Below, piece after piece: positions 1,711-63,833 of a DNA stretch of 64,000 bases. The first letter of the stretch is position 1, and every line of letters starts with the position of its first letter. Origin of the DNA: a virus; UHGV virus genome UHGV-0038496; one strand, given 5' to 3'. The notes under the pieces are model-generated. The model was not told the DNA's origin and did no database searches. It saw nothing but the letters and a program-made list of their open reading frames with translations. The position numbers and the translations under genes were made by a program.

Positions 1711-2328
1711 TTAGAAGGCTGGGCGATCAGGGATATGTATGTTAGGGGCTTTGTTTATATCAATCTCCAGTAGGTGAATCCTGTAAAGTTTCAGTTCCTT
1801 AACAAACTGCTCCTGTTCAGGAGATAGTATATAATCCAAGTCCAGCATGTCGCTGAAAGCTCCAAGCCTTGCTGTAGCCCATTGCAATTCTTCTTCAATG
1901 ATCTGCTGTGCAGCATCGATGTAAGGTTTGTTATCAACAACAAATTTCTCACCATCCCAGCGGTAGGCATTGATCATGTTCTCAATGTCTTCCGGGAACT
2001 CCTCTCGTTTACCGTGCAGGACTTGAAGACCATCACTGGGGAAAATACCTGCGGGATCTGTGGTTACAATTTTCAGTAAACCATCGGATTCTATAACTGC
2101 GAACAGGTATTCTACTCCAGATTCCTGGGCAATTTGCTGTAATTCTCGTGTCTGGGCGTACCAGTCACCGTGCTCATTGCGAAGGAAGTAAGCAGAATAA
2201 CGAGCGTAATCTTCAATCTCCTGCTCTGTTAATTCCAAGGTTTGTGGCTGATCTTCATCGAGAGCCAACACCATCGGGCGAGGCTCTTGCGGATCATACA
2301 GCTCAAAACCTGTAGCCATTTTGATCAT
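1711..2328 (-). CDS. Tail fibre assembly chaperone (Tfa-like)
   Basis: 205 aa directly downstream of fibre gene B; C-terminal motif LKLYRIHLLEIDINKAPNIHIPDRP resembles the conserved Tfa C-terminus (lambda Tfa family). Confidence 0.6.
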   Translation of the reverse strand: MIKMATGFELYDPQEPRPMVLALDEDQPQTLELTEQEIEDYARYSAYFLRNEHGDWYAQTRELQQIAQESGVEYLFAVIESDGLLKIVTTDPAGIFPSDGLQVLHGKREEFPEDIENMINAYRWDGEKFVVDNKPYIDAAQQIIEEELQWATARLGAFSDMLDLDYILSPEQEQFVKELKLYRIHLLEIDINKAPNIHIPDRPAF

Positions 2329-2344
2329 AATATGTAACCCTCAA

Positions 2345-3385
2345 TTATAGTGTCTGAACGGTAATCCACTGTCCGTTAACAAGTTTCTGTAGCGGAGCTG
2401 CCCAGTAACCTGCACCACGGAGTTCTTTTTTGTTACCGTTAGCCCATCCTCTCATAACATAACCCGGACGTACCCTATTATTAGAAACCCCATCGATCAA
2501 CATACCGCCGCAGCGAATATCCTGAACGCCTGAAGCTGGGATACTGATAGTCAAGTTACCATTACCATCCGCGTTCACACCGTTGACTGAACGAACTACA
2601 TGGCGACCACCAACCACACAATACTGGCTACGGACTGTCATGTTATCGACGTTGGAACCACCGTTAGCATAGAAGCTACCTGTGGTCAACTGGCTCGATA
2701 CGCTGACGTTACCGAAGGAAGCTGTACCAGTAATGGTGACTGTGTTGGAACGCACGTTGTCCTGTGCTTCAATGTTACCAATGACTTTGAGAAGTGCACG
2801 GTTAACAGAGATAGCATTCAGATGCATCAGTGTAAACTCTGGGTTGATATCCGGTTGTGTAGGTTGGAATCTCCAACGGAAAGCATCAACTATGGAAGTA
2901 CCACCATCGTCGAATGAACCAACGTTATCCATCAAGCAGAAGTCTAACAAGGTTTTATCTGGACTGATTGTGGTTTCTATCCACGCCGCATCTGTTTCCG
3001 CTGCCGCAAAGTTAATGCGTTGCAATCCCAGAGGACCTGTCATTGTGTCACCAGTGATCTTGACGTAACGTGCGTCAGTCTCAGCTTTAGTAACAATGCC
3101 GAGGTTTTTACGGGCAATCTCTACATTCAAAAGATCGCTCAAGTTGTTGTCCTTAATAAGATAACGTCCTTCCATAGACGGGATCTGATCTTCGGAAATG
3201 TATTTGGCCCAGGTAGCCAGCATGTTGATGAGGTAGTTCAACTCTTCACATGATGGTTTCTGCCCTTTATCCCAACCTTTTCTCCAGAGATCGTCAATAG
3301 GACGCATCTTATTCTGTTTATGGGAGTTGGGGAGGATTTGATCCTCCGCAGCCCATATCTCTAAAGGAAAACTAGGTTTAGCCAT
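2345..3385 (-). CDS. Tail fibre tip protein, paralog B
   Basis: 346 aa; ITGDTMTGPL motif; shares N- and C-terminal blocks with 242..1306. Confidence 0.75.
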   Translation of the reverse strand: MAKPSFPLEIWAAEDQILPNSHKQNKMRPIDDLWRKGWDKGQKPSCEELNYLINMLATWAKYISEDQIPSMEGRYLIKDNNLSDLLNVEIARKNLGIVTKAETDARYVKITGDTMTGPLGLQRINFAAAETDAAWIETTISPDKTLLDFCLMDNVGSFDDGGTSIVDAFRWRFQPTQPDINPEFTLMHLNAISVNRALLKVIGNIEAQDNVRSNTVTITGTASFGNVSVSSQLTTGSFYANGGSNVDNMTVRSQYCVVGGRHVVRSVNGVNADGNGNLTISIPASGVQDIRCGGMLIDGVSNNRVRPGYVMRGWANGNKKELRGAGYWAAPLQKLVNGQWITVQTL

Positions 3386-11300: not shown

Positions 11301-13187
11301 GGTTAACTTCAAGCTAGTTTTCAAACCGTCGAGACTGTTTGCACCTGTACCACCTTTAGCCACAGGCAGCACACCAGTGATCTTGCCATCTGTCAACGCA
11401 ATGCTATCAAGTTTACCCAGAGCTTTACCACCCAAGTTAGCCCATGCGGTGTTCGCATCTCTTGCACCAGTACCACCCTGACCGATTGCCAGCGGGATGT
11501 AAGAGCTGTTGGCAATATCATAAGCACCCCAGAGTTTACCCTCTGTAATGATCAGTTTGGCAGTGTTTGTTGGGTTGTTGACGGCAGTTTCAGAACCTGC
11601 CTGTACAAGTCTGTTAACCTGTAAAGTATTACGGGTTGTATTCAGATCACGTACAGTAAAGGTGTTACAAGCAACAGTATACGGAACTTCAAAGTTACCG
11701 TCCTCGTTGAAACCCAGGTATCTGTGAATCTGGTTACCTTCTGGACCTTTTTTCAGGTGCAGGGTTAACCATGTTTTATTATCGTTACGGACTTCTGAGT
11801 AAATACGGAAACCGTGTTCTTCTGTCGTACCGTTAGCTTTGTATTTAGTACCATTCAGAATACCTGAAGGACCAACGTTGTTACTTACAGCTCTCAGATA
11901 CAGATTGCTAAAACTGGGTGAATTACCTGCACCAATCCCTATCCACTCACGGAAGCCGTTCGTGTTCACAGGTCTTGACCAGGTTACCCATTGCTGCCAG
12001 GTTTTTTCACCTGCATTATACCAGCGAGAATAATAGGTATCTTCGGTGTTGAACGGATGATATTCCTGACGGCAACCATCTCCCCCGTTCACGTTGTTCT
12101 GCAATACAATCAGTACACCTGCCTGTTGGCAAGGATAACCGTTAGCAGCAGTAGCAAGAGCTGACACTGGTTGATAGTAAACACCAGCTTCATTACCTTT
12201 CAGGTTATTGATATTGAAATTAGCTTCCAGTGCAGTATGGGATCTGTGGAATACCGCAAAGTTACGACGGAACGAAGCAGCATCACGAACACCTGTACCA
12301 CCCTGTTCTACACCCAGAGGTTGCCAGTTATTAGCAGTAGGGTTGTAATACCCCCAACGACCAGAAGTATCCAGTTGCAGGTACGGGACATTACCAATGT
12401 CTTCACCAGAGAAAATAGCCGTACGAGACGGATTAGTCTGGTCAAAACGGTTGAATTCAGATTTTAATGCATGTCTGTGGCATACCGCTTTGTGAGTTTC
12501 TTTGGAAACACGGATGGTGTAGATCGCACCAGTTTTGCCACCCTGCATAATAGCTTCGTACACGTTGGAAGTGGAGGTTTCCGCAACTTTCGATACGAAA
12601 CCATTTAAAGTGCCTTCACCTCTTGCAACATCAGGGAACTGAACAGTTGCTTTTTCATCCATTACGATGTGGCCTGCATAGCCTTCGAGGTAGTTAGCAT
12701 TTGATACAACAGTTACCCTTTCGAAGCTCAGGCCGTTCAGCACACGTACAGCTTCAAAAGCAGCATCAATAGCTTCATCCATAGTATCCTGAATGGTTCT
12801 ACCATCTTCAGTCAATACCAGGGAAGCACCGATTGTGGAACCTAACTCGTCACGTAAAGACGGGTCAGTGTAAACCGACCATGCACCATCAGTTACGCCA
12901 CCATCTTCGTAGGGACTTGACAATGAAGGTACAGTATGCGGGTATCCACCTGTCCAGCGTAAGTATAAATCTTCTTCCTCGTAGTAGCAGAAGTCCATCG
13001 GACCATTCAGGGTGCCACCGTCATGGAAGTTGACAACGTGGGAGAGAGTCGGATCACCTGCCATCAGATCTTTCACTGAAGTTCTGCGGGTGAGGTCTGG
13101 TTGCTGAACGATCAGATAGTCTTCTTCTTTGTTGACTTCTGTGGTTACAGGCAAAGACTCAATCCTGACAAGTTTCACATCTGCCAT
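8319..13187 (-). CDS. Long tail fibre protein
   Basis: Start at MADVKLV with AGGAG Shine-Dalgarno; 1622 aa; repeated (I/A)xGGTGA(R/K)...WxNLG modules typical of phage fibre repeats; C-terminal His-rich HxH repeats. Confidence 0.75.
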
Positions 13188-13222
13188 TGTTTCTCCTGTT
13201 AGGAGGGCCGAAGCCCTCCAGA

Positions 13223-15811
13223 TCAAATATACAAGTTGCGATATTGAGCGTAAAGGCCCAGACCTCTCAGTATTTCACCGGAGTGGAAACCTACAGGATC
13301 TGAGTTAGCCCAACAGCCGTTAAGGATATTAGTGCCATTGACAAAATAATGTCTCTGTAAGTCATTCATGCAGGCTTCAACTACTGGGTCAATCTGTGCC
13401 CATGTGTAACCTGCCAAACCTGCATAACAACAACCAGCTAACCATTCAGCGGTGATCCATTGTCTGTCACCTCTGTCCTGATTGGAATAGCCACCTGTCG
13501 TACTGAAATCTGTGGGTAATCTGCCACCATTCGCTGACTGGAATCTGTTCAGGAAAGCAATCCATTTCTGGCAATACTGTTCCAGACGTTCATCCACAGG
13601 TTTTTTATTTTTCTTCAATTCGTAAAGTGCTCTGCAACCAGCAAGGAATGCTCTGCTTTGCATTTTAGAATTGTCCAGCATCATGAACCCACCAATCAGG
13701 CTACCTTTCTGCCAGTTGTAAGCTGTGTAGACAGGACCTTCTGTGCGAAATACGACTGAATATTGCTGCTGAGCATCATACAGGAATTTAACACAGTTAG
13801 TAAGCTCTGCAAGATCTGTAGGTTCTTCACCCATACAGAATACCGCAGGGTACTGTTCGCCAGCTACCGGATAGGCAGGTCTTTCTTCCAGCAAATAATT
13901 GTCTGGATCAGCAACCTTACCTGTAGGCCATGCCCCTGGTGCATAGTTCAGGCTGTCAAATTTGTAATCTGCGACATAGCAATCACCAAGTTTAGCAGTT
14001 GCTGCCACACGGGATGCGAGATGCATTGAGAATCTTACGATGTAAACATCACCTACAAAGTTAAAGAACTCTGGTAAATTGTTTACACAATATAGATTGA
14101 AAATGCCATCGCCAATCTTAGTAGTTGCCAGCTTAATGGTGATCTGAGTCACCTCTTTCAGGTTGGCAAAGAACGGTTTCACTTCATCAGCAGTGTGATT
14201 AGGCTGCGTAGTTTCAAGCAGAAAATCACCAATTGACAAGTTTTCAGTGACCCAGTTTGCACCTGTGCCATGTAGATCAGTATACCATAACCAGCCATCT
14301 TTATCAAGGAAATTAATCCTGACAATATCTGCTGTGCATTGATAAGTAATGGAACGCAGTGCTCTCGTGCCATTAAAATCAAAAACAACCTGACCGCTTG
14401 AGATATTCAACGAAGCGTAGTTATCGCTGTGGCCTAGCAAGGTACTGGAGTAGCCCATGCTCAGAACAGCACCACCACTGGCTGTTAATCTTTCTTCTTT
14501 TGGCAGAAGATAGGATTCACCGAACTCTGGAGATACCCTTACGAAGTCGCGGATCTCAAAAGTGTTGGTCTGCATACCTGTTCCACCGAACGGAACACCA
14601 ACACGGTACTCTATGTTTTTACCATAACCATCATCAATGGTGAAATATGGCTGGAACAGAACATTATCACCACCGAATTCGATTACTATGGCAGAATCCC
14701 TGTTCACTTTATACGTAAGACCGCGTTGAACAACTTCACAAGGTTTACGTGCCCCCATACCAATGTTGATATAACCTTCGGCATCACGGGTGAGTGTAGG
14801 TCTGTTACCTGTGATTGTCACATTACCATCTGCAAAAGGCGCTCTAATCTCCGTGGTGCGTCTGCAAATCATATCATAGGCATTTGGGTTACAGTACGCT
14901 AATAGCTCGCTGTGGGCCTTCTTATAGGCCTCAAAATACTTGCTTTCGTAAGTGATCGAATAAAGTGCATAGCAAGCATCACACCACATTGCCAGTGCGT
15001 CAACAGGTTCTGGCTGATCAGGTGCTGTCACGTTGCATGGAGAAGTGATCACCGGATCATAGCGTTTGATCTCTTTACCGCCCTGTGCAACAGGTAGACG
15101 TACTGCATAGTTTAATTTGTGTGTGCCGTTAACCGAAGTGCTGGCTAACTGAACAGTACCGTACTCAGAAGCAGCATGTCCTGTATCAGCGATAGTGCCG
15201 TTGGCCCAGTAACGATTACCATCCCAGGCTATGTACCAATCAACAGGGTATTTCGTACCAGATGCATACCAGTTCGGAGCAGCATCTGTACCTGCATACA
15301 CATCAGAATTCATAGAATTACGACCTAAAGCACCATCGTAGGCCATAACTGCAACATCAAGATACTCACCCCAGGTAGGTGAGCCAGAGGGAATTTTAGC
15401 TCTCCCTTTGCTGAAAGAGATGTTCACCCCTTTAAAACCACCATGTTGTGGAATACCGTCATCTGTTAATGGGTAGTGGGAAATACGATTGCATTTTCCT
15501 TCTACTGCAAAGTTACCTGTTAAATGTTTATCATAAGCATCCCAGCAGGCTTTTGCTCTGGCTAACCAGAACTCATCCTCTGTTGCTCTGTATACCTCTA
15601 CGTAACCCAGGATCAACACAGCCTGAGCCTCTGGAGTCGTCCAGTCATTGTTGATAGTGGAACCCTTCCAACCGCTGGCGATCAGATGTTCAGGATCAAC
15701 AAGAAAGTTCTGACTATTCGGGCTAACTGTAAGGCCAGTGTTTTTATCGAGGCACGTCCTGTGCCCCTCTATCATCTGGTATACGTTATCAATGCCGTGT
15801 TGAATACGCAT
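13223..15811 (-). CDS. Large baseplate/tail-spike-like protein
   Basis: Start at MRIQHG with AGGAG Shine-Dalgarno; 862 aa; no catalytic motif confidently recognised. Confidence 0.5.
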
Positions 15812-20979: not shown

Positions 20980-22092
20980 TTAGTTAGTAGGACTTGCAAA
21001 CAGGTTAATATCTTTCCAATTTTCCCATTCAAATCTTGCATCCAGCATTTCTTCGAACTGAGCAGCGTCAAACTCGATTGTAATTTTACCCTCACCAACT
21101 TCCAGAGGAATTGGAGGAATTTCGAAGGATGGTAACGGATCCAAAGGTGTACTTGGAGTTGGATTAGCTCTGTAGGTAATCGGGTTAAGCATACGGTAAT
21201 CCAGGCCAAGGAAAGATGAAATGCCGTTAACACCATCGACAAGCCACTGCGGATGTTTGGTCACGTCAGTTTCCTGGTGGTAGTTTTGCATCCAATCATC
21301 CAACATACCAGCACCTTCGTACCCCATGTAGCCCAGAGCTAATGGTCCTTTCCATTTCCACAGTCCACCAAGTAACCGTGCAAACAATCCTTTCTTAGCC
21401 ATGGCTGCTGCACCACCCGCAGCTGCACCACCTGCGGCGGCACCACCGAGAGCACCTGCAACACCTCCGGCAGCTTTAATCATACCCAGGGTTGCGGCAA
21501 CAGCTTTGACGATTCTCAGCAATTTCCATACGGCGTTAACAACAACTAAGATGGAGAAAGCATAGCCTACCCATTTAGCTTTGCTGAATGTTTCATCAAC
21601 AGTGTCACTTGTATCTTTGACTTCTTTTTTCAGCAGACCAAAGTGGTCTTTGACTTGCAACCACCAGATACGGATACTGACAATCGTGTTGTTCAATTCA
21701 CCAACAATGTCGTTCAGACCCTGGATAAATCCAGATACAAACTCACCAGCCTGCATGATCATTGGGGTGAATGTTTCTCCTGTGCGGATCAGGGTGTAAT
21801 AAAACTCGGTGAGTTCATCTGACCATGTGGTGAACAGTTTTTGTTTAGTCAATTCGATGAAAGTTTTCAAACGGTTTTCAGCCAGAACGTTAGATTTCTG
21901 CATACGTTCATAACCAGCAGCTGACGCTTCGTTCATGTACTTAGCAACGTATTTCATCATTTTGGCTGTTTTGACCTGGCCTTTCTGCATCATGTCCATG
22001 AATTGTTCCATAGACAGCTCAGACAGGTTGAAAGCCTCTTTTGTTGCTTTAATGAACGGCTCGTAAGCACCTGGCATTGCTTCAGCTACCAA
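20980..22092 (-). CDS. Tail tape measure protein, 3' exon
   Basis: 370 aa; Gly/Ala-rich hydrophobic segment AAGGVAGALGGAAAGGAAAGGAAA; frame opens only a few codons upstream (stop TAG), continuing the 22907..24142 reading frame after an intron. Confidence 0.7.
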   Translation of the reverse strand: MVAEAMPGAYEPFIKATKEAFNLSELSMEQFMDMMQKGQVKTAKMMKYVAKYMNEASAAGYERMQKSNVLAENRLKTFIELTKQKLFTTWSDELTEFYYTLIRTGETFTPMIMQAGEFVSGFIQGLNDIVGELNNTIVSIRIWWLQVKDHFGLLKKEVKDTSDTVDETFSKAKWVGYAFSILVVVNAVWKLLRIVKAVAATLGMIKAAGGVAGALGGAAAGGAAAGGAAAMAKKGLFARLLGGLWKWKGPLALGYMGYEGAGMLDDWMQNYHQETDVTKHPQWLVDGVNGISSFLGLDYRMLNPITYRANPTPSTPLDPLPSFEIPPIPLEVGEGKITIEFDAAQFEEMLDARFEWENWKDINLFASPTN

Positions 22093-22906
22093 TGTCCAGA
22101 CAGTTCGCTACGCTGTCCCGGTGTGCTAAGACACCCGCCACACATTTCTGTGTGGAGCAGACTATATCTTCTCTGGATAACCAGAGCCAACCATTTCAGA
22201 GGCGCTTGCCTCTTACACCGCTACACTCATCACGGTTAGTCGTTGAGCACATAACTTATAAATCTTTCAGCAGTTTAGACCATGCTTTCTTAGTCTTGAT
22301 TCGAACAATTGCTGATCTGCAAGCACCAAATTCTTCCATCAAATCTGTTGTATTCTCAAACCGCCTGTTATAAATTTCGATAACCTCTTCTGCTGTGAGC
22401 TTATGATTGGCATTTGACTCACCAGAGGCATCATTCAGGCCATTTGCAAAAGCATGTTTCTGATTGCCAGATCGAGTAACATACTCCAGATTATCTTTAT
22501 GGTTGTTTGCTTTATTACCGTCCTTATGGTTAACTTCCATCCCAGGTTGTGGAGGTTCACCAAGGAAAGTAAGGGCAACTATTCTGTGAACAAGATACAA
22601 CACACATTTGCCGTTTACCCGAAAGTAAACGCGTTTGTAACCATTGTGTATTGTCTGCTCAGTCAACTGCTTCCGTGTGTTTCTTCTTGTAGAGAATATT
22701 GCACCGTCCTCTCTACAGAAGTACCCATCGTGACCAGGAACTGGTCGGATTTCTAAGTTACTTCGCTGCGGATTATCCATTGTTACATCCTCCAAACTTT
22801 TTACCATACCCCGAGTAGTTACTTCGGGCCATAAACATGTTACCACATTTATTTGGTATTTGGAAGGCTTTAGGAGCTTCCCGCAATTAGGTTGGTTTTA
22901 TAACAG
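22093..22906 (-). mobile_element. Group I intron in tape measure gene (approximate boundaries)
   Basis: About 810 nt between the two TMP exons; contains HNH ORF; 3' part carries AACGACTA...GATATAGTCTG...GGCGGGTGTCTTAGCACACC core shared with the terminase and nrdD introns. Confidence 0.6.
22256..22780 (-). CDS. Intron-encoded HNH homing endonuclease
   Basis: Start at MDNPQRS with GGAGG Shine-Dalgarno; motifs RIVALTFLG and VNHKDGNKANNHKDNLE. Confidence 0.8.
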   Translation of the reverse strand: MDNPQRSNLEIRPVPGHDGYFCREDGAIFSTRRNTRKQLTEQTIHNGYKRVYFRVNGKCVLYLVHRIVALTFLGEPPQPGMEVNHKDGNKANNHKDNLEYVTRSGNQKHAFANGLNDASGESNANHKLTAEEVIEIYNRRFENTTDLMEEFGACRSAIVRIKTKKAWSKLLKDL

Positions 22907-24142
22907 CTAGTATGTCAACTGTTGTTTTAGTTCCTCAGACATTACCTGTCCTTTACCAAGCATTTGCTGTATCGCCATAATACCACGCTGATATTTTACT
23001 TCATCAGCACCATATGACGCAGCATATTGCGAATAAGCAGAGAACAGATCACGGACTTCCTGCCCTGTCATTTGGTTTTTGGCGTTTACTGCCATTTGAG
23101 AGTAGCCTTGCAGACCTGATTTCAGGTCGAAGCCTAATCTCATAGCTTCACCTTGTACGAATGCAACTTCCGAGTTAGCTTTCGTAGGATCACCCATAAC
23201 GTTGGTAAGAGCAGCACTCGCACCTTCCATCATGTGACCGGATTTGTTAACACTGACAATTGCAGAGAATGCGGTGTACGCTTTAGTCAAATCCATGACT
23301 GTTGTTCTTAATTTATTAAAAGCGGTGCTCAGAGTCATGGTTCCAGCAGCAGCATTAGCAAACCCCTTCTGCATTGCAGCGATCTGGGCGTTGAAAGTTG
23401 ACTTACCTATCAACCCTTTTGCATATTGCTGTTCAACCTGACGGTAGCCACCTAACATATCCCTAAAATTAGCCCCATAACGAGCTGTCAGACGCGTTGA
23501 CATGTTGGTAAGGTGTGTTAGCCTATCCATACCCACATTATTGCGTTTGGGCGTTCCTGAGCTGCCATTTTGCTTGTGCCATCTGTTCATTGCAGCAGTC
23601 TGGGCACGAACAAGTGCTGGGTTGGAAGCTACACCACCCATGTTGGGGTTACCTGGGATATATCTGAAGGTATTTGCTCTGGACAGAGCACGGGGTGAGA
23701 CTGGTTTGTTGGAGAAGTAGGAACTACCTAAGCCACCACTTTTCTTAGCCAGTTTGGATTGTTCCTGATAGAATTTACGCATTCTCACCAATTCAGGATC
23801 TTTGGCAGTCATCTGACCGACAACCTGTTTCCTTCTGGCGTTCTCACGTTTTTCTATCGCAGATCGTACAGCAGCTTCACGTTTAGCCTGGGATACAGCT
23901 TCCTGATGCATACGGCGTTGCTGTTGCAACTGTTTATTCTGTACCCTCTGAACAATCTGACCAGTCTTCTCCATCGATGCTTGCCAGGCTTTCAGAGGAT
24001 TCCCCTTTCCCAAAGAATCGCCCAGCTTTGTAAACTCCCTGCCTAATCCTTTAATTCTTTCAATAGCTTTTTTATAGCTATTGTTATCGATCTCAAATGT
24101 AATTCGGTTTGTGGTTGTGGCAACCACTTTGTTACCAGCCAT
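22907..24142 (-). CDS. Tail tape measure protein, 5' exon
   Basis: 411 aa; TMP-like composition (Ala/Gln-rich, GYSQMAVNA core); ORF ends where intron core begins. Confidence 0.7.
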   Translation of the reverse strand: MAGNKVVATTTNRITFEIDNNSYKKAIERIKGLGREFTKLGDSLGKGNPLKAWQASMEKTGQIVQRVQNKQLQQQRRMHQEAVSQAKREAAVRSAIEKRENARRKQVVGQMTAKDPELVRMRKFYQEQSKLAKKSGGLGSSYFSNKPVSPRALSRANTFRYIPGNPNMGGVASNPALVRAQTAAMNRWHKQNGSSGTPKRNNVGMDRLTHLTNMSTRLTARYGANFRDMLGGYRQVEQQYAKGLIGKSTFNAQIAAMQKGFANAAAGTMTLSTAFNKLRTTVMDLTKAYTAFSAIVSVNKSGHMMEGASAALTNVMGDPTKANSEVAFVQGEAMRLGFDLKSGLQGYSQMAVNAKNQMTGQEVRDLFSAYSQYAASYGADEVKYQRGIMAIQQMLGKGQVMSEELKQQLTY

Positions 24143-25024: not shown

Positions 25025-26563
25025 TTATAACCACTTAGCTCTCCATACCCATTTAATCTTACCACTATCCCACAACCGGATAGCCCCAACCAAATCTTCT
25101 ATCTCCCGCTCTGTACGAGGATCAATAGACTTATCTGGGTTGAAGTCTACATCAGATCTGCCAATCTCCTCCAGACGTTTAGGAATCAATCGACGTTGCC
25201 AGTGTGGTTTCGGACGCAAACCATTAGCAGGGTGGAATACTCTGTAGTCAGGTTTGCCATACGTTTCAGCAACAAATCCCAACACTTCATAAACCCCACC
25301 AGCGAAGTAGTCATTCATACTGAATGAACTAACCTCTTCTGGATTATTCTCCCTGATAAACGTTTTAAACAGTCTAGATGCCCCACCACGAACAGAACAG
25401 CTTGATGCAAATCTTGATAACTCCCATGTTGCCTTAGTCGTACCGTTAGCTCTGGCCTGACCTCTCGTAGTTTTACCGTAGCCGAAGCTCATGATTGCTA
25501 CAATTTCACCTTCTTTCGTTTTCAGAGCCAGATTGATAGGGTTAGGAGAATGGCCCTGCGGGTGGTAAGCGTCGTAAAACTCTTTGCACTCTATTGATTT
25601 TAGATGCACAACTTCACACTCCCTGGCATTTACTTTACGCTCACCATTACACCCCAAAGCATGAGCCAGCAACTGGCTGAACACTTTCTGGTTGTTATCC
25701 CAATCATAGTCCGTGATCTGGATCAGGCGAATACCTTTCTCTTTACAGGCTAACCACTTGTTGTAATGGTAGTCTTTAGACTTATGATTATCACCATGCC
25801 AGAAGACACCGTTAACTTCAATCGCCACACGTTTTGATGGGACAAAGATATCTAACTCTTTGCCATCATCCAAGATAGTGCGGTTAGACTGCTCCGCGTC
25901 TGGACAGATAGATTTTACAAAGTCAAAGACAGATCCTTCCACTTTAGAAGTCAATTTTGCACAATGCCTGCACCCATGACCTCTGTGAATGTGTTCTTTC
26001 ACAGGCTGTTGGAACTCTGATCCACATTTTGTGCATTCAATATTGAGAATGCCTTTCTTCCTTTCATCATAAAACATACTTTTGTAAACGTATTTATCTT
26101 TGTGGACCTCTTTAGCTTGTTCCACAACTTCTTCAAAAGAGTTTCTGCTTTTTCTACCACGAGTCATGTTAGCACAACGAGGGCAGCCCTGTCCTCTCAA
26201 ATGTTTGCTAGGTTTTTGTGAGAACACGCCGTGGTCAGGGCAAATAATGTTCACATTTGTCACTCTATCTTTATACACAACCTCAGAGTAATCGTAACGA
26301 TCACCATGTTTTTCTTTGGCCTTTTCGATAAATTCTTCCCTGTTTCCACGTTTACGCTCAAGGTAACATTCTTTGCACCCCTCCCCTTTTCTGTGAGCAT
26401 TCGCTTCTACCGAAAACACGCCATGTTTTTTGCAAATAATGTTAACTTTTTCTCTGCTACCTTTGTACTCAGTTTGACTGTAATCATACATTTCTTCAAA
26501 CTCAGGGTTTTCTTTGAAGACGGCTGTTAGCCATTCTTCTTTTGTATAACCTTTTCCAGCCAT
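25025..26563 (-). CDS. Free-standing endonuclease: three zinc-ribbon repeats plus Vsr/DUF559-like PD-(D/E)xK domain
   Basis: Start at MAGKGY with AGGAG Shine-Dalgarno; three approx 60-aa repeats YxYS..Y....I(I/E)C..HG.F......H..G.GC..C; then ELDIFVPSKRVAIEVNGVFWHG restriction-endonuclease-like motif. Confidence 0.55.
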   Translation of the reverse strand: MAGKGYTKEEWLTAVFKENPEFEEMYDYSQTEYKGSREKVNIICKKHGVFSVEANAHRKGEGCKECYLERKRGNREEFIEKAKEKHGDRYDYSEVVYKDRVTNVNIICPDHGVFSQKPSKHLRGQGCPRCANMTRGRKSRNSFEEVVEQAKEVHKDKYVYKSMFYDERKKGILNIECTKCGSEFQQPVKEHIHRGHGCRHCAKLTSKVEGSVFDFVKSICPDAEQSNRTILDDGKELDIFVPSKRVAIEVNGVFWHGDNHKSKDYHYNKWLACKEKGIRLIQITDYDWDNNQKVFSQLLAHALGCNGERKVNARECEVVHLKSIECKEFYDAYHPQGHSPNPINLALKTKEGEIVAIMSFGYGKTTRGQARANGTTKATWELSRFASSCSVRGGASRLFKTFIRENNPEEVSSFSMNDYFAGGVYEVLGFVAETYGKPDYRVFHPANGLRPKPHWQRRLIPKRLEEIGRSDVDFNPDKSIDPRTEREIEDLVGAIRLWDSGKIKWVWRAKWL

Positions 26564-26628
26564 CGAAAAACTCCTAGTAGTTTTAAACACAGGGGAACTA
26601 TACCACAAAACATTAGCTTTTGTCAAAC

Positions 26629-37216: not shown

Positions 37217-38002
37217 TTAAATCATCCTCTTATACATAGAGGGTGAAACAATCTTCGGAATAACACATGGCATCGCAACTTCCTCTTTTTCAAGGTAGTT
37301 GATTGCAGAAGCAATGGAGTCGGCCCAGTCATCTTTACGGCTAAAGGTTGACCGTTCGCCGTTGAATTTCTCCAGCTCTGTCAAAAATGCTTCCAGTGTA
37401 TCAGGGTCGAAACTTGACCTGACAAGCCGAACCATACCCTGTTGGGCAAGGTTGGCAAACGGTGAGAAACGGGTGAGTTTTGATTTGTTAGACGGCATTG
37501 GGTCTTCTTCCACCCTGAAACCTCCAGCAAGGAGTTTGCGGGATGAAGTAAGAAACTCACTCTTACCTGCCTGACCGGGGTCCACAGAGAAGACAATCAC
37601 ACAATCTTCACCATCAAACTCTGCCTGTTTCCTGATAATAACATCGCGTTCACCAGCTTTCTTGCAGAACTTACCGCTCAAGCCTGTGGAATACCTGCCA
37701 TCATCTACGTTTTCAGGACAATAGTCACCAGAGATGTAGTAGTAACCATCGCTATCCTTGCTGACTTTGATACTGGCTGTATAGTCGGGGAATTTGTTGC
37801 CAGAGGTACGTTCTGTACCAGCTTTATCCCACGCTCTTACAGAAACTGCTCCTAGGGGGACATGATCCGCATCTTTCAAGAATGTGCGACTGAAATAGTT
37901 TGCGCCTTCCGGTTTAGCGAACCAGTTACCATAGAGAAGTTGTGCTTTTTCCAGTTCTGGCAGACCTTCTAGGAATGCAAGATATTCTGGGTTATCACGC
38001 AA
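37217..38002 (-). CDS. Terminase large subunit, 3' exon (nuclease domain)
   Basis: 261 aa beginning LRDNPEYL; upstream frame closed by TGA a few codons earlier, so this is not a complete gene; intron core immediately upstream. Confidence 0.75.
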   Translation of the reverse strand: MRDNPEYLAFLEGLPELEKAQLLYGNWFAKPEGANYFSRTFLKDADHVPLGAVSVRAWDKAGTERTSGNKFPDYTASIKVSKDSDGYYYISGDYCPENVDDGRYSTGLSGKFCKKAGERDVIIRKQAEFDGEDCVIVFSVDPGQAGKSEFLTSSRKLLAGGFRVEEDPMPSNKSKLTRFSPFANLAQQGMVRLVRSSFDPDTLEAFLTELEKFNGERSTFSRKDDWADSIASAINYLEKEEVAMPCVIPKIVSPSMYKRMI

Positions 38003-39009
38003 GCAGATAGGGTTATCGTGTCCTGGTGTTCAGGGCCGGACGCAACTCCGACCCCCGTTGGTTCCATCCACCGCATCCATGCTCGGCTGCATGTTACCAT
38101 GCAGAGCAGACTATATCACGATCCTGTTTCTCACAGGACCCTTCGCTTTTCGAGCACCATCAGCTTGTGCCCTACTCCCTTTCGGGATAGTCGTTGAACT
38201 ACAATTACCAATCATAATTGTTTGAAATGTAAGTATAAGTTTTCCTTTCCTTGATACTTTTCACTGTACGGTGAGAAACCCCCCACAATCTTGCCACCGC
38301 ACCAACGGATAAGCCTTTTTGTAAATCTTCGCAGATACCAATCACCTTGTGCTCACTTATTCTGTTAGCTGAAGGTATTTCCCTAAAGTGAAACTCCGCA
38401 GAGATATCTGGGTATACTGATCCATTCTTTATACCACTTACAAGGGTTTGATTGACACCGAACATCTGACAGATATCTTTTACCCTTGCACCTTGCTCTA
38501 ATAGCCTGCATATTTCAAGGGCAGTGGCATCATCCAAATACCTGTATTTATTTACATAATCTTTTTTAAGTCCAGTTTCATGGGCGTGGTGTGTGTTTTC
38601 CTCTGGGGTTGTCCACTCAAGGTTCCATGCGGCGTTATTCAACTTATTACCGTCCAAGTGATTTACTTGGGTTTTCACGCTAGGATTATCATTATCAACA
38701 AAAACCTCAGCAACAACTCTGTGAACAAGCACTTGGAACTTTTTGCCGTCCTCACACAGGGAAACCACAGCATAGCCTGTCTTTTTATGCGTAACAGGTT
38801 GAAGGAATTTATTAGAATACAAACTATAAATTCTGCCATCATATGTCACGCAATAGTGTGGGTAACCTAAAAATCCTAAATTCTTCATTTCAAACACTCC
38901 CTACTACAGTTTCGGAAGAATAATTATAGCTGCTGATTATCTGAAAGTCAATCAGATTTTCCAGCAATTAACGAAGTTATTCGACGTGCATTACTGCACG
39001 AAGCCACTA
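38003..39009 (-). mobile_element. Group I intron C in terminase gene, carrying HNH ORF (approximate boundaries)
   Basis: 3' part (38003-38204) contains AACGACTATCC...GATATAGTCTGCTCTGCATGGTAACATGCAGCCGAGCATGGATGCGGTGGATGGAACCAACGGGGGT, about 50/51 nt identical to nrdD intron 2. Confidence 0.6.
38205..38897 (-). CDS. Intron-encoded HNH homing endonuclease (NUMOD-like N-terminus)
   Basis: 230 aa; QVLVHRVVAEVFV, VNHLDGNKLNNAAWNLEW HNH motif; C-terminal helix-turn-helix-like region. Confidence 0.8.
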   Translation of the reverse strand: MFEMKNLGFLGYPHYCVTYDGRIYSLYSNKFLQPVTHKKTGYAVVSLCEDGKKFQVLVHRVVAEVFVDNDNPSVKTQVNHLDGNKLNNAAWNLEWTTPEENTHHAHETGLKKDYVNKYRYLDDATALEICRLLEQGARVKDICQMFGVNQTLVSGIKNGSVYPDISAEFHFREIPSANRISEHKVIGICEDLQKGLSVGAVARLWGVSHRTVKSIKERKTYTYISNNYDW

Positions 39010-39327
39010 CAGATTAATGGTTGCACCAATAAAGGCGATAGAGAGGGGTTTTGGAACTATCTCAACACCTTTACCGTTAACATACGTGTACTTCTCGATC
39101 AACTCTTCTGGCGTATCGCCGAAGATAAATTCCCCATCCCTACGGATGAAATAACGCTTAACGCCACACTTACTTTCATCGGGGTAGCCTTCGTCATCAA
39201 GCCACCAACGAACAAGTTTGGCTAAATAATGTTCAGAATCGGGGTTACAGCTGATCACCATTCGCGAAGAGTATTTTGATTTCGACCTCATACGGGAAAT
39301 CAGGTAGTCGATTTGCTCCCATTCGAA
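39010..39327 (-). CDS. Terminase large subunit, internal exon (approximate boundaries)
   Basis: Frame FEWEQIDYLISRMRSKSKYSSRMVISCNPDSEHY...IVPKPLSIAFIGATI; ISCNP resembles ATPase motif III; ends just before a DNP-type motif that continues in the 3' exon. Confidence 0.55.
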
Positions 39328-39684
39328 CTGAGTCGTTTGTGTTCAGGCAAGGTCGCTAATCTTGCCCCGCCACCATGTGGCAGCTGCATGTCTCCATGCA
39401 GACCAGACTATATCTTATAAGCGGTAACAACCGCCTATCCTCCCGTTTCGGCAGTCTTAAAAGACTGTGGGTTTCCCCAGCCGCTTGGCCCTAACGCCCG
39501 TAAGCGATAGTCGTTGAGCACACATCCTATCAGGATGCTTCGCTGCGGATTATCTAAATCAACACACTATTACCATACCTTCGGTCTTTCTCCAAAGCCA
39601 ATATTATGTTACCATAATAGATTGGTGGTGTCAATAGTAAAGATTTCCCCGCAATTAGGGAGGTTTTACGAGAGCTACCAACTA
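39328..39684 (-). mobile_element. Group I intron B in terminase gene, ORF-less (approximate boundaries)
   Basis: Contains CAACGACTATCG...GATATAGTCTGGTCTGCATGGAGACATGCAGCTGCC...CCTGAACAC core elements (minus-strand sense). Confidence 0.5.
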
Positions 39685-39735
39685 ACCCTCGTCAAAGCAT
39701 ATTAAAGTATATTCCACTTTTGTCCCGCCGGATCG
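39685..39735 (-). CDS. Terminase large subunit mini-exon encoding Walker B motif (approximate boundaries)
   Basis: Minus-strand frame ...TKVEYTLICFDEG then TAG; LICFDE fits the hhhhDE Walker B consensus at the expected distance (about 100 aa) after the Walker A in the 5' exon. Confidence 0.5.
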
Positions 39736-39975
39736 CTACTCCGACGCGGTGTGCTAAGACACCCGCCACATATTACCATGTGGAACAGACTATCTCTTCC
39801 ATCCTTGGCGTGCCGTTTGGATCACCAATCGCTTGTGATTCTACTCCCCTACACTCATCGGGGATAGTCGTTACACTCGGTTTCAATTAATCCTTTAACC
39901 GTAGCTCGGTATTGTCCTTTTGTCAAGGAGTTTCACCGAATTAGGCACGAAGGGCAGGTTTGTTTACCCTTGATG
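39736..39975 (-). mobile_element. Group I intron A in terminase gene, ORF-less (approximate boundaries)
   Basis: Contains GTAACGACTATCCCC...GAGATAGTCTGTTCCACATGGTAATATGTGGCGGGTGTCTTAGCACACC core, paralogous to the tape measure intron. Confidence 0.45.
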
Positions 39976-41079
39976 ATTCAGCTTATCTTGGACGTATTCC
40001 ATGTGGCAGTACTTGATTACCGCACCATCCCTTTTCTTATTCCACTTACCTGTCTTTGCATCGTAATATGGAAAAGTAAACTTATGATCTTTCTCCCTAA
40101 ATTTTGGCCTCATATATTCAGGAAGATCCAGATACACACTTAGTGCTTTAGGCCACAGACCGCCTTCACCTTCCAGTTGTGGGGTTGTCCTACGGAACAT
40201 CACCACAGAGGTGTTTGGGTCATCTATCATCTTTAGTGGGAGAAGCTGCAAAAGAAAGGATTTACCACTGTTGCCTGTCACTGCAATGCAGTTTTCCAGT
40301 CTGGTGATAAAATAGCCTGTTGTGGTAGCAAAACAATATTTGTAACCATCTTCCGGCTCAAACTCTTCGAACGTTGCATCGTTATTAAGAGCAATCGTAC
40401 CTGCACGTTCGTTGGAGAACACAACTTTGTAACCCTTTTCGAAGAAGATCTGTGCATTGAATCCCAGAGATGATCCGAGGTATTGCAAGAAATCAGCCTG
40501 TTCTTTCGTTGGAACAACGTAGACATGCGAGTCATTACCGTTCAGGTAAATCTCATACCAGATCTGCAACAACTGGCGACGATCACAGTTATACCATTCA
40601 TCTGTGAATTTGTAATATCTTGCCTTTTCTTTCAGCTCTTCGTCAGAAATATCAAGGCCAGTACCACCCATGTTCACAAACGTGGTTTGCATACGCATTG
40701 CCAACTCATCGTTAGCATGTTGTTCGGCCACTTCACTGAAACAAAGTGTACCGTAATCTGTTCCGTCTTCTGGTACATACAGGACTGTGTGCTCGTCAGA
40801 CAATTCCTGACAAATACCATCCTGCACAACCCTGGTCAATTTATCGCATTCCAGCTTAACAAACTCTTCAGGCTGGATAAACATAGCCTTACCAGTTTCT
40901 TTATCAAACTGGAGGATATCTTGACCATCCCAGTCTGAGATTCTGATCCAACCGTTAGGTGTCATCACCTCATGTCGCATTGACAAACAACCCGCTGCCC
41001 CACCAATGATCAGGAAGTCGGCATCATTTTCCAGAATCATTTGTTGTTTACGGGAGCATGGGCCATACATTTTAGCCAT
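39964..41079 (-). CDS. Terminase large subunit, 5' exon (ATPase N-terminus with intein in P-loop)
   Basis: ORF as called (371 aa); extein sequence IIGGAAG / SGKSFLL reconstitutes Walker A GAAGSGKS once residues 31-270 are removed; the true 5' splice site lies somewhere before the in-frame stop at 39964. Confidence 0.75.
   Translation of the reverse strand: MAKMYGPCSRKQQMILENDADFLIIGGAAGCLSMRHEVMTPNGWIRISDWDGQDILQFDKETGKAMFIQPEEFVKLECDKLTRVVQDGICQELSDEHTVLYVPEDGTDYGTLCFSEVAEQHANDELAMRMQTTFVNMGGTGLDISDEELKEKARYYKFTDEWYNCDRRQLLQIWYEIYLNGNDSHVYVVPTKEQADFLQYLGSSLGFNAQIFFEKGYKVVFSNERAGTIALNNDATFEEFEPEDGYKYCFATTTGYFITRLENCIAVTGNSGKSFLLQLLPLKMIDDPNTSVVMFRRTTPQLEGEGGLWPKALSVYLDLPEYMRPKFREKDHKFTFPYYDAKTGKWNKKRDGAVIKYCHMEYVQDKLNHQG
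40270..40989 (-). mobile_element. Intein (mini-intein, about 240 aa) in terminase Walker A motif
   Basis: Begins CLSMRHEVMTPNGWIRISDW (intein block A pattern) and ends ...ENCIAVTGN followed by +1 Ser; flanking exteins form an intact P-loop. Confidence 0.7.
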
Positions 41080-42206: not shown

Positions 42207-42282
42207 TGGCACCCCGTACAGGACTCGAACCTGTAACCTATGGCTTAGAAGGCCACTGTTCTTCCATTTGAACTAACGGGGC
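42207..42282 (-). tRNA. tRNA-Arg (anticodon UCU), CCA encoded
   Basis: 76-nt cloverleaf on minus strand: acceptor GCCCCGT/ACGGGGT, D stem GTTC/GAAC, anticodon stem GTGGC/GCCAT with loop CTTCTAA, T arm ACAGG-TTCGAGT-CCTGT, discriminator G, 3' CCA. Confidence 0.85.
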
Positions 42283-62392: not shown

Positions 62393-63055
62393 GATTTAGA
62401 TTACATAATTAGTCCATTAACGAACTGTTGTCTTGTAAATTATCCAGACATGCTGGAGCATGGATTTACAATAGGTAACGCAACCATAGGAACACCAAAT
62501 TCTATTAATGTAGCTGCAACAGTTCTTTCACAAATTTCAGCTGCTGTTTCTGGTGGGCAGTATGGTGGGCAGACGTACAGTCACATAGACCGCTACCTTG
62601 TCCCCTATGTAGAAAAAACACATAATAAAAACTTATCTTTCTGTAAAAAACACGGTTTGCCGGAAAGCGTTGCTGATGAAATGACAGAGAAAGATGTATA
62701 TGATAGTATGCAATGTTTTCTCTATCAAATCAACACCTTAACCAGCACCAACGGGCAAACTCCGTTTTTGACTATCAGTTTAGGTCTTGATACTTCTAAA
62801 TTTGGGAGGATGATCACTAAAAACTATCTTATGGTTCATAAAGGTGGCATTGGTGAAGACCATATAACCCCAGTATTCCCTAAAGTCTTGTTCTTCCTTG
62901 AAGAAGGGGTGAACATGAACCCAGGTGACCCAAATTACGATTTGAAACGCCTGGCTTTGGAATGCTCAGCAGAGCGAATTTACCCAGACTTCGTTTCTGT
63001 GCCTTTGAACAGAAAAGTGACAGGATCTACTGCTGGCGATGTTACAAGCATGGGT
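62393..63055 (+). CDS. nrdD: NrdD, exon 2
   Basis: 221 codons in frame; TNCCLV...GFTIGNATIGTPNSINVAA...QYGGQTYSH...NGQTPFLTISLG...DPNYDLKRLALECSAERIYPD colinear with T4 NrdD. Confidence 0.8.
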
Positions 63056-63833
63056 AAACTACTATTGCTCATGTAAAACCTATCTAAACGGGGGAACTCT
63101 CTACGGAGAAAATCCCGTGCTAAACGTAACAGAACTCCCGGAGAAAAGGAGTCCTGAAATGAGAAAACAAATTCGTGATTTTGAAGGGTATGAAATTGAC
63201 GAGATGGGAAATGTTTATTGCACCCGCTACGAAAAGGAAAGAATCATCCATCCGTGGGAAGAAATAAACACAGGCTACCTTCTTGTCAGGATACGCAAGA
63301 ACAAGAAAACTGTTTGCCTGAGGGTTCACAGACTTGTTGCTGAAGCGTTTTTACCGAATCCAGACAATTTGCCCTATGTTAAGCATAAGGGTGACAACAA
63401 GAAAGATAACAGCGTATACAATCTTGAGTGGGGTGCTTGCCCAGATAATACCCAGGAAGGTTACGACAACAACTGTTATACTTTTTACACAAGGTGTCAC
63501 GGTGTGAAAGCTACCAACAAACTGACTGGTGAAGTTTTCCACTTTAAGAGTCTGAGATGCTGTGCTGATACTTTAGGGGTGGATAGAAAAAGAATATCTG
63601 CTATCCTGAAGCGTGGAGCACCTAATAACTATGATTACGAGTTCTGTTACGAAATGCCGAACGACTAACCGTGATGAATGTAGCGGTGTAGGGTGCAAGC
63701 CTATGGCACTCCAAAAGATAGGCACACGAAAGTGTGAAGATATAGTCTGATCTGCATGGTGACATGCAGCCGAGCATGGATGCGGTGGATGGAACCAACG
63801 GGGGTAGTGTTGCGAGCTACTCTGAACACAATG
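63056..63833 (+). mobile_element. Group I intron 2 in nrdD with HNH ORF
   Basis: 778 nt; splicing joins ...VTSMG to CRSFLSKYN (T4 NrdD has SPMGCRSFLS at this point); 3' core about 50/51 nt identical to terminase intron C. Confidence 0.65.
63159..63668 (+). CDS. Intron-encoded HNH homing endonuclease
   Basis: 169 aa; AAGGAG Shine-Dalgarno; HRLVAEAFLPNP and VKHKGDNKKDNSVYNLEW. Confidence 0.8.
   Translation: MRKQIRDFEGYEIDEMGNVYCTRYEKERIIHPWEEINTGYLLVRIRKNKKTVCLRVHRLVAEAFLPNPDNLPYVKHKGDNKKDNSVYNLEWGACPDNTQEGYDNNCYTFYTRCHGVKATNKLTGEVFHFKSLRCCADTLGVDRKRISAILKRGAPNNYDYEFCYEMPND

Follow-up and report, generated by a model that had tools for sequence, protein, structure and literature searches.

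Two adjacent ORFs with the character of a tape measure protein (TMP), separated by an endonuclease gene, raise the question of whether this locus encodes two proteins or a single protein from an interrupted gene. The window, which is the whole stretch of 64,000 nucleotides analysed from the virus genome UHGV-0038496, was assigned to an rV5-like myophage. The DNA search of GenBank phages found no close relative of the window, the best matches being Vequintavirus phages with approximately 76% identity. The two minus-strand ORFs at 22907..24142 (411 aa) and 20980..22092 (370 aa) were confirmed, with 814 nt between them. The first-pass annotation had described both as TMP-like and had placed an HNH endonuclease ORF in the gap, and the ORF list together with a Pfam HNH_3 match agreed with it. 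It had also proposed that the TMP gene is split by an HNH-bearing group I intron, which was supported by the colinearity of the two ORFs with a single-gene TMP, a Pfam TMP_3 domain spanning the junction, intronless alleles, a covarying RNA structure and a match with RF00028. As read from the sequence, the locus very probably carries a mobile self-splicing group I intron, IA2-like, inserted in phase 1 of the Leu410 codon of the TMP gene.

Alignment showed that exon 1 matched residues 1-415 of the single-gene TMP of Escherichia phage EduardKellenberger, one of these Vequintavirus phages, and that exon 2 followed on colinearly with residues 415-778. The ORF of exon 1 ran 3 codons into the intron (...SEELKQQ-L-T-Y-stop). 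The TTG called as the start of the second ORF was situated within the last 4 bases of the intron, giving (M-V-)AEAMPGAYEPF as the beginning of the predicted protein. The frame of exon 2 had been said to be open for a few codons only above this TTG, and it was indeed open for 5 codons with a TAG just beyond. No Shine-Dalgarno sequence was found ahead of the TTG or of the first ATG of the second ORF. A single junction (...CAG U|UGACAU ... CAUUGG|UA GCU...) restored the reading frame while also leaving U as the last base of exon 1 and G as the last base of the intron. By this junction, exon 1 spans 24142..22918, the intron covers 22917..22089 and exon 2 extends over 22088..20980. The coordinates given before were those of the gap between the ORFs (22093..22906), and the real boundaries of the intron were slightly wider. 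The features of the locus were as follows.

22918..24142, minus strand: TMP exon 1, codons 1-409 and the first base of Leu410, ending ...AAACAACAGT
22089..22917, minus strand: predicted group I intron, 829 nt, starting UGACAUACUAGCUGUU and ending ...GGACAUUGG, with the terminal G at 22089
22256..22780, minus strand: HNH_3 homing endonuclease ORF, 174 aa, with the ATG at 22780, 8 nt after GGAGG
20980..22088, minus strand: TMP exon 2, from the second base of the Leu410 codon to codon 777 and the stop, beginning UAGCUGAAGCAAUGCC

Joining 22918 to 22088 produced an ORF of 777 codons (approximately 84 kDa; the separate halves are approximately 45 and 40 kDa), and the joined TMP of 777 aa was 56% identical, end to end, to the 778-aa single-gene TMP of EduardKellenberger. 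In this alignment the splice junction fell in a block that was 100% conserved (EELKQQ-L-AEAMPGA), and the conserved sequence of this single-gene TMP at the site was ...GKGQVMSEELKQQLAEALPGAYEPF... The predicted ligated-exon sequence was ...AAACAACAGT|TAGCTGAAGC... and the predicted junction peptide of the spliced TMP was ...EELKQQLAEAMPGAY..., ...EELKQQLAEAMPGAYEPFIK..., KQQLAEAMPG. On the spliced TMP, Pfam TMP_3 (PF20155) covered residues 304-474 with 68.4 bits (cutoff 41) and crossed the junction at 409/410, and phrog_5255 covered residues 2-773 (E=1.2e-236). The TMP gene followed the tail tube and chaperone genes, and the gene order was the same as in EduardKellenberger and in the contig L010. 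An additional minus-strand ORF of 533 aa with repeated Cys-x2-Cys motifs was situated at 25025-26626, between the tail tube and tail chaperone genes. It matched Pfam DUF4379 here and its homologs were recorded as DUF723. The position of this ORF was empty in EduardKellenberger; L010 and L014 had kept the ORF and in L015 it was duplicated, and it may be a free-standing homing-endonuclease-like gene.

A 214-aa segment spanning the junction was matched by approximately 119 close GenBank relatives, and in all of those among the matches listed the segment was one contiguous piece. None of these listed relatives had the segment divided over two separate genes, the arrangement that would have spoken against an interrupted gene. 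Close relatives in IMG/VR comprised one intronless and three intron-bearing contigs. The intronless contig L002 (92% identical) aligned to the TMP coordinates 1-1227 and 2057-3163 of the window, with exactly 829 nt absent; a 2-nt overlap in this alignment is an alignment ambiguity. Another intronless contig from a distant lineage, L006, likewise lacked exactly 829 nt. All copies used for the comparison were metagenomic contigs and none were isolates. Exact-pattern scans of IMG/VR found no intron-bearing contigs beyond the three from the TMP protein search, and gene callers had split the TMP in all related contigs.

Within these boundaries, the core motifs AAUUGCGGG...UAAUCCGCAGC and GCUCAACGACUA...AAGAUAUAGUC were found and the P3/P7 pseudoknot was present. 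The helices, identified by inspection and by folding with the P6a loop taken out, were located as follows.

22902..22907, minus strand: internal guide sequence (IGS) GCUGUU, the 3' strand of P1, read from the sequence, with P1 pairs invariant in 7 copies
22895-22890, minus strand: P3 5' strand, within the block 22776..22895
22885-22880, minus strand: P4 5' strand
22875-22776, minus strand: P5/P5a/P5b/P5c extension (three-way), P5b with a GUAA tetraloop
22089..22258, minus strand: 3' half of the ribozyme
22258-22251, minus strand: P6a 3' strand
22249-22247, minus strand: P6 3' strand
22241-22237, minus strand: P7 5' strand, GACUA
22236-22217, minus strand: P7.1, ACCGU/GCGGU
22213-22198, minus strand: P7.2, AGAGGC/GCCUCU
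22192-22187, minus strand: P3 3' strand, GGUUGG
22186-22171, minus strand: P8
22164-22160, minus strand: P7 3' strand, UAGUC
22155-22138, minus strand: P9, with a GAAA loop
22135-22120, minus strand: P9.1
22118-22098, minus strand: P9.2

P1 consisted of AACAGU, the last 6 nt of exon 1, paired with GCUGUU, and the U at 22918 formed the U·G pair of the 5' splice site. For P10, the CUA adjoining the IGS (22908-22910) can pair with UAG, the first bases of exon 2. The other core helices were CCAACC/GGUUGG for P3, UGCGGG/UCCGCA for P4, GCG/UGC for P6 and GACUA/UAGUC for P7, and P6a (GUAACUUA/UAAGUUAU) closed the loop with the ORF. A P2 helix was not present, the gap between P1 and P3 being 6 nt only. 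P7.1 and P7.2 were inserted between P7 and the 3' strand of P3, which is a hallmark of IA2 introns. The intron ended with ...CAUUGG, its terminal G being at 22089, and ligation at this point restores the TMP frame. Folding of the ORF-deleted core yielded the helices in both the MFE and centroid structures, with an MFE z of -4.3.

The covariance-model scan that the first-pass annotation had suggested produced a local RF00028 match at 22138..22927 with 24.8 bits (E=6.6e-4 for a search space of 1.2 kb), although the Rfam gathering threshold of 50 bits was not reached. P1, P4, P5, P6 and P9 were placed correctly in the alignment and P7 was misplaced inside the ORF. An Rfam search of the whole window at the gathering threshold reported the terminase intron at 39384..39720 only and left the TMP intron unreported. 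We read the sub-threshold score as a technical failure and not a biological one, because the model cannot span the ORF-bearing insertion of approximately 490 nt in P6a and misaligns P7. The ORF-deleted core of the TMP intron was 68% identical to the terminase intron of the window that matched RF00028 with 80 bits.

Seven copies of the intron (window, L005, L015, L003, L004, L010 and L014) were aligned with the ORF loop trimmed. The copies in L003, L004 and L014 were of a variant B, in which P7.2 and P8 were replaced by another module. All 94 proposed pairs were standard in all seven copies (657 of 657 cells), and full pairing in every copy would not persist unless folding were under selection. 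Changes on both sides were present in 16 pairs, located in P5a', P5b, P5c, P7.2, P8, P9 and P9.2. In P5a', P5b and P5c, 8 pairs differed among the window, L010 and L014 by compensatory changes of both bases, and the comparison of P7.2 with variant B showed one compensatory pair and two one-sided changes. None of 500 shuffles reached the observed pairing and covariation, and shifting the 3' partners by 1-3 columns resulted in 34-41% pairing with at most one double-change pair. P1, P3, P4, P5, P5a, P6, P6a, P7, P7.1 and P9.1 were invariant among the seven copies; for the predicted core helices P1, P3, P4, P6, P6a, P7, P7.1 and P9.1, the support within the family is conservation only. Across related introns, P4 varied as UGCGGG/UCCGCA vs UGCUGG/UCAGCA and P7 as GACUA/UAGUC vs GACCA/UGGUC vs GAUCA/UGAUC. 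The introns in this P4 and P7 comparison included the experimentally spliced TMP introns of Vibrio phage ICP1, with terminase introns 1 and 3 and the intron of contig L013 left out for having no pattern match or a spurious P7. P3 showed compensatory changes against the terminase intron (CCAACC/GGUUGG vs CCUCCC/GGGAGG).

For the endonuclease, the ORF list gave a longer frame from a GTG (22256..22846), but the ATG at 22780 is the likely start, and the gene calls in relatives were also 174 aa. The GGAGG Shine-Dalgarno sequence (22793-22789) was situated inside the 3' strand of P5a, where UUUGGAGG pairs with CUUCCAAA. The ORF started just upstream of the 3' strand of P4 and its frame covered this strand, P6 and the 5' strand of P6a, with the bulk of the ORF forming the P6a loop and the stop codon falling within the 3' strand of P6a. 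Pfam HNH_3 (PF13392) matched with 50.3 bits (E=1.9e-13; cutoff 24.8) and phrog_59 with E=6.7e-43. The match with I-HmuI (PDB 1U3E) covered residues 10-158 with E=7e-13, with the HKDGNK...NN...NLE motif aligned. The ORF was intact in all four copies tested with dN/dS of 0.08-0.13, and a ratio of approximately 0.1 indicates that it is under purifying selection.

In close relatives, the intron was 96-98% identical compared with 80-94% for the exons, and exon 1 of the intronless L002 was closest to that of the intron-bearing L003 (97.6%). A protein search with exon 1 returned exon-1-sized proteins of 431-432 aa which were 38-39% identical and had the same ...EELKQQLTY end. This word-based search missed full-length TMPs of 56% identity and returned exon-1-sized proteins only, hence it is not a census. 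The contigs L010 and L014 carried TMP exon 1, an HNH_3 gene (174 aa) and TMP exon 2 as in the window. The TMP of L010 was approximately 38% identical to that of the window in amino acids, and DNA similarity to the TMP gene of the window was present only at TMP coordinates 1144-2097 (92%) and in one 68-nt stretch of exon 1. The span 1144-2097 corresponded to the intron with approximately 80 nt upstream and approximately 43 nt downstream. An intron identity of 92% amid a near-absent DNA similarity of the surrounding gene points to recent homing. The two lineages, with TMPs approximately 38% identical, each held intron-bearing and intronless alleles, and the gap was exactly 829 nt in both. All seven intron-bearing alleles had the common flanks AAACAACAGT|...|TAGC, unlike the three intronless alleles, which had AAGCAACAGCTTGCT, AAACAGCAATTGGCT and AAACAACAATTAGCA at the flanks. 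The shared flanks would fit co-conversion as well as the needs of P1 pairing. The intronless target sites were ...GAACTAAAACAGCAATTGGCTGAGGCA... for the L002 type and ...AAACAACAATTAGCAGAGGCA... for the L006 type.

A third lineage was represented by L013 (Logan SRR9302962, 2930-4010), with a TMP that was 29% identical and a different group I intron. This intron had P4 as UGCUGG/UCAGCA, P7 as GACCA/UGGUC and an HNH_3 ORF of 227 aa, and was inserted 13 codons upstream of the site in the window (...IQQMLG|KGQIMAEELKGQLAEAIPG). Downstream of its TMP gene, L010 had more HNH_3 genes interspersed with those for the baseplate (11646-13299), one of them with a weak AP2 match.

The intron core had been described as shared on the basis of a 49-mer at 22120..22168. 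The whole 49-mer was found as a single copy, with none expected by chance, and was thus unique in the window, but parts of it did recur. One part, AGATATAGTC, had 3 occurrences compared with 0.09 expected, and the 24-mer TGTGGCGGGTGTCTTAGCACACCG recurred exactly at 39747..39770 in a terminase intron. This corresponds to P9-P9.1, where 24 nt were identical between the TMP intron (22119-22142) and terminase intron 1 (39747-39770, minus strand). The variant-B module of L004 was the same as that of terminase intron 2 of the window (39384-39720), exactly over 48 nt. The presence of identical peripheral modules in different introns suggests recombination between introns.

The terminase large-subunit gene of the window (38087-40028, minus strand) was apparently interrupted by three group I introns. 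Two of them, with RF00028 matches at 39766-40028 (44.7 bits) and 39384-39720 (80.3 bits), had no ORF and were separated by a very short exon. The halves of the third were at 38666-39026 and 38087-38395, split by an ORF with HNH_3 and HTH (38205-38897), and an ORF further downstream (37217-38002) matched Terminase_6C. The NrdD gene (62450-63800, plus strand) was also broken by a group I intron. Its ORF at 62450-63076 matched Pfam NRDD (E=3.9e-47), the intron carried an HNH_3/I-HmuI-NUMOD-like ORF (63039-63668) and a 3' core at 63663-63769 (RF00028, 34 bits), and nrdD-like coding sequence picked up again near 63,800. A tRNA gene was located at 42210-42282 on the minus strand (Rfam tRNA, 68.3 bits).

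An HNH gene could also have been inserted without splicing, in which case the 411- and 370-aa halves would be translated apart and assembled post-translationally. The halves were called as separate ORFs with a possible start each, and such cases are on record, as in the NrdA of Aeromonas phage Aeh1 split by mobE (cited in PMC7344957) and in one non-splicing HNH insertion in phage CB7 (PMC7344957). For the present locus this is highly improbable, given that the ORF is enclosed by a complete covarying group I ribozyme, the split falls within a single Pfam TMP_3 domain and the homologous arrangement in ICP1 splices (PMC10448857). In addition, the TTG of exon 2 lies inside the end of the intron and neither it nor the next ATG has a Shine-Dalgarno sequence. 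The chance that the intron is inactive or in decay, or that the insertion arose in assembly, leaving the TMP as a pseudogene in a defective genome or in a chimeric contig, is close to negligible. The window and all intron-bearing relatives are uncultivated contigs and the Rfam score was under the gathering threshold, but the insertion and its boundaries were identical in seven sequences from IMG/VR, ENA and Logan assemblies. Moreover, the helices were all intact in these seven copies, the endonuclease ORF was under purifying selection and the exons were in frame and conserved.

A functional intron, besides being selfish, may also have been co-opted to regulate the expression of the TMP or the endonuclease, either through sequestration of the endonuclease ribosome binding site in P5a, which would link its translation to the folding of the RNA, or through a splicing efficiency that times the TMP supply. 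This extends the main explanation and does not replace it. The GGAGG of the endonuclease in the 3' strand of P5a and the start codon just before the 3' strand of P4 speak for such a role, whereas intronless alleles coexist in both lineages and the GenBank relatives listed have no intron, therefore the intron is dispensable for TMP expression and the co-option is rather unlikely. Other candidates were rejected. In-frame stops and the arrangement with an ORF of its own excluded an intein, a group II intron was excluded by the presence of group I motifs with no reverse transcriptase or domain V, and a programmed frameshift was excluded by the 829 nt with stops in all frames.

With a mobile self-splicing intron as the preferred reading, the late TMP transcript would carry the intron and the ribozyme would fold with P1 formed by the last six bases of exon 1 (AACAGU) and the internal guide GCUGUU. 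An external guanosine would attack at the 5' splice site (22918|22917), directly 3' of the U in the U·G pair, and the 3'-OH of exon 1 would attack after the terminal G (22089) to produce the ligated mRNA and one TMP of 777 aa, so that tail length would be set as in the intronless relatives. In mixed infections, the endonuclease would introduce a nick or cut close to the conserved EELKQQLAEA-coding site of TMP alleles that have no intron, and repair off intron-bearing genome copies would transfer the intron with short exon flanks (homing). Such homing has indirect support in the intron polymorphism of two lineages, in an intron better conserved than its exons, in the common flanks and in the dN/dS of the ORF. 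The assignment here of splicing and catalysis, of an endonuclease activity and of its cleavage site comes from membership in the well-studied group I intron and I-HmuI-type HNH families.

Introns in genes for tail length had been called uncommon, a statement that needs qualifying since they are documented in TMP genes of Bacillus cereus-group prophages and of ICP1. Tourasse & Kolstø 2008 described group I introns at three positions (IVS1-3) in TMP genes of B. cereus-group prophages, with presence/absence polymorphism among strains (PMC2504315). These are of the same kind as the intron of the window, i.e. polymorphic group I introns in TMP genes at alternative positions. The likeness is by kind only, as the prophages are Gram-positive temperate siphophages with TMPs of more than 1200 aa.

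[quoted passage not shown] 2023, with an HNH-3 endonuclease in the middle intron, and was described by these authors as 'another frequently interrupted gene' (PMC10448857). Like the source phage of the window, ICP1 is a myophage with structural genes annotated as rV5-like and group I introns with HNH_3, and both have intron-split terminase genes. Exon 1 of the ICP1 TMP aligned to residues 284-402 of the window TMP and stopped at ...NQVMA, where the same conserved motif is interrupted, and three tandem group I cores were found after exon 1 within this motif. The best GenBank relative of the window endonuclease was encoded by TMP intron 3 of the ICP1 isolate 1992_Ind_M4 (40% identity, 97% coverage), which is organised like the window intron in having its ORF in P6a and an extension of the P5abc type. 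Based on P1 pairing, the site of ICP1 intron 3 would be 5 nt downstream of that in the window (...GQLG|EVMP vs ...QQ(L)AEAMP), i.e. a neighbouring site. ICP1 differs in having three tandem introns and four exons, compared with one intron in the window, and the two TMPs were approximately 28% identical over the matched stretch. No significant DNA similarity was found between the window intron and the ICP1 introns, with a 25-nt core match only. The motif ...IQQMLGKGQxxxEELKxQLAEAxPG... looks like a hot spot with at least five insertion points (one in the window, one in L013 and three in ICP1).

Among other known systems, the terminase, polymerase and nrd genes of the Certrevirus phage CB7 contain introns that are spliced, and its TMP gene has none (PMC7344957). 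The IA2 phage introns of T4 td/nrdB/nrdD, SPO1 DNA polymerase and Felix O1-like nrdD have the same core motifs, P7.1/P7.2 and an ORF looped out of a peripheral helix. The window intron differs from them in having a structural host gene instead of one for nucleotide metabolism or replication, and in having no P2. Introns of Felix O1-like and RB49-like phages shared approximately 80% identity with positions 674-760 of the window intron (3' core), and those of SPO1-like Bacillus phages approximately 72% with positions 19-157. In the GenBank phage DNA search, no record covered more than 17% of the intron. I-HmuI, an HNH nicking endonuclease of SPO1, has 174 aa as does the window enzyme and both are encoded by group I introns, with an identity of approximately 35% or less and different target genes. 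The intron is the first rV5-like example that we could find, with a sequence absent from GenBank phages, whereas TMP introns and the same target motif are already experimentally documented in ICP1.

Overall, the annotation of the locus would change from TMP fragments and an HNH gene to one spliced TMP of 777 aa and an intron-encoded endonuclease, and an enterobacterial-type rV5-like lineage would join the few phages whose tail-length gene is known to contain an intron. The current understanding of group I intron and TMP function is unchanged. The locus provides a clean natural data set on mobility, with matched intron-bearing and intronless alleles in two distant lineages, introns 92% identical between them, compensatory changes and swapped peripheral helices. 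Of greater interest are the spread across lineages, the insertion sites that seem to form a hot spot and the modules swapped with terminase introns. We lean slightly towards regarding the movement of the same intron between TMP lineages approximately 38% identical, the hot spot in a motif of approximately 25 codons and the module exchange with terminase introns as parts of a natural chimeric-ribozyme system put together by intron-intron recombination.
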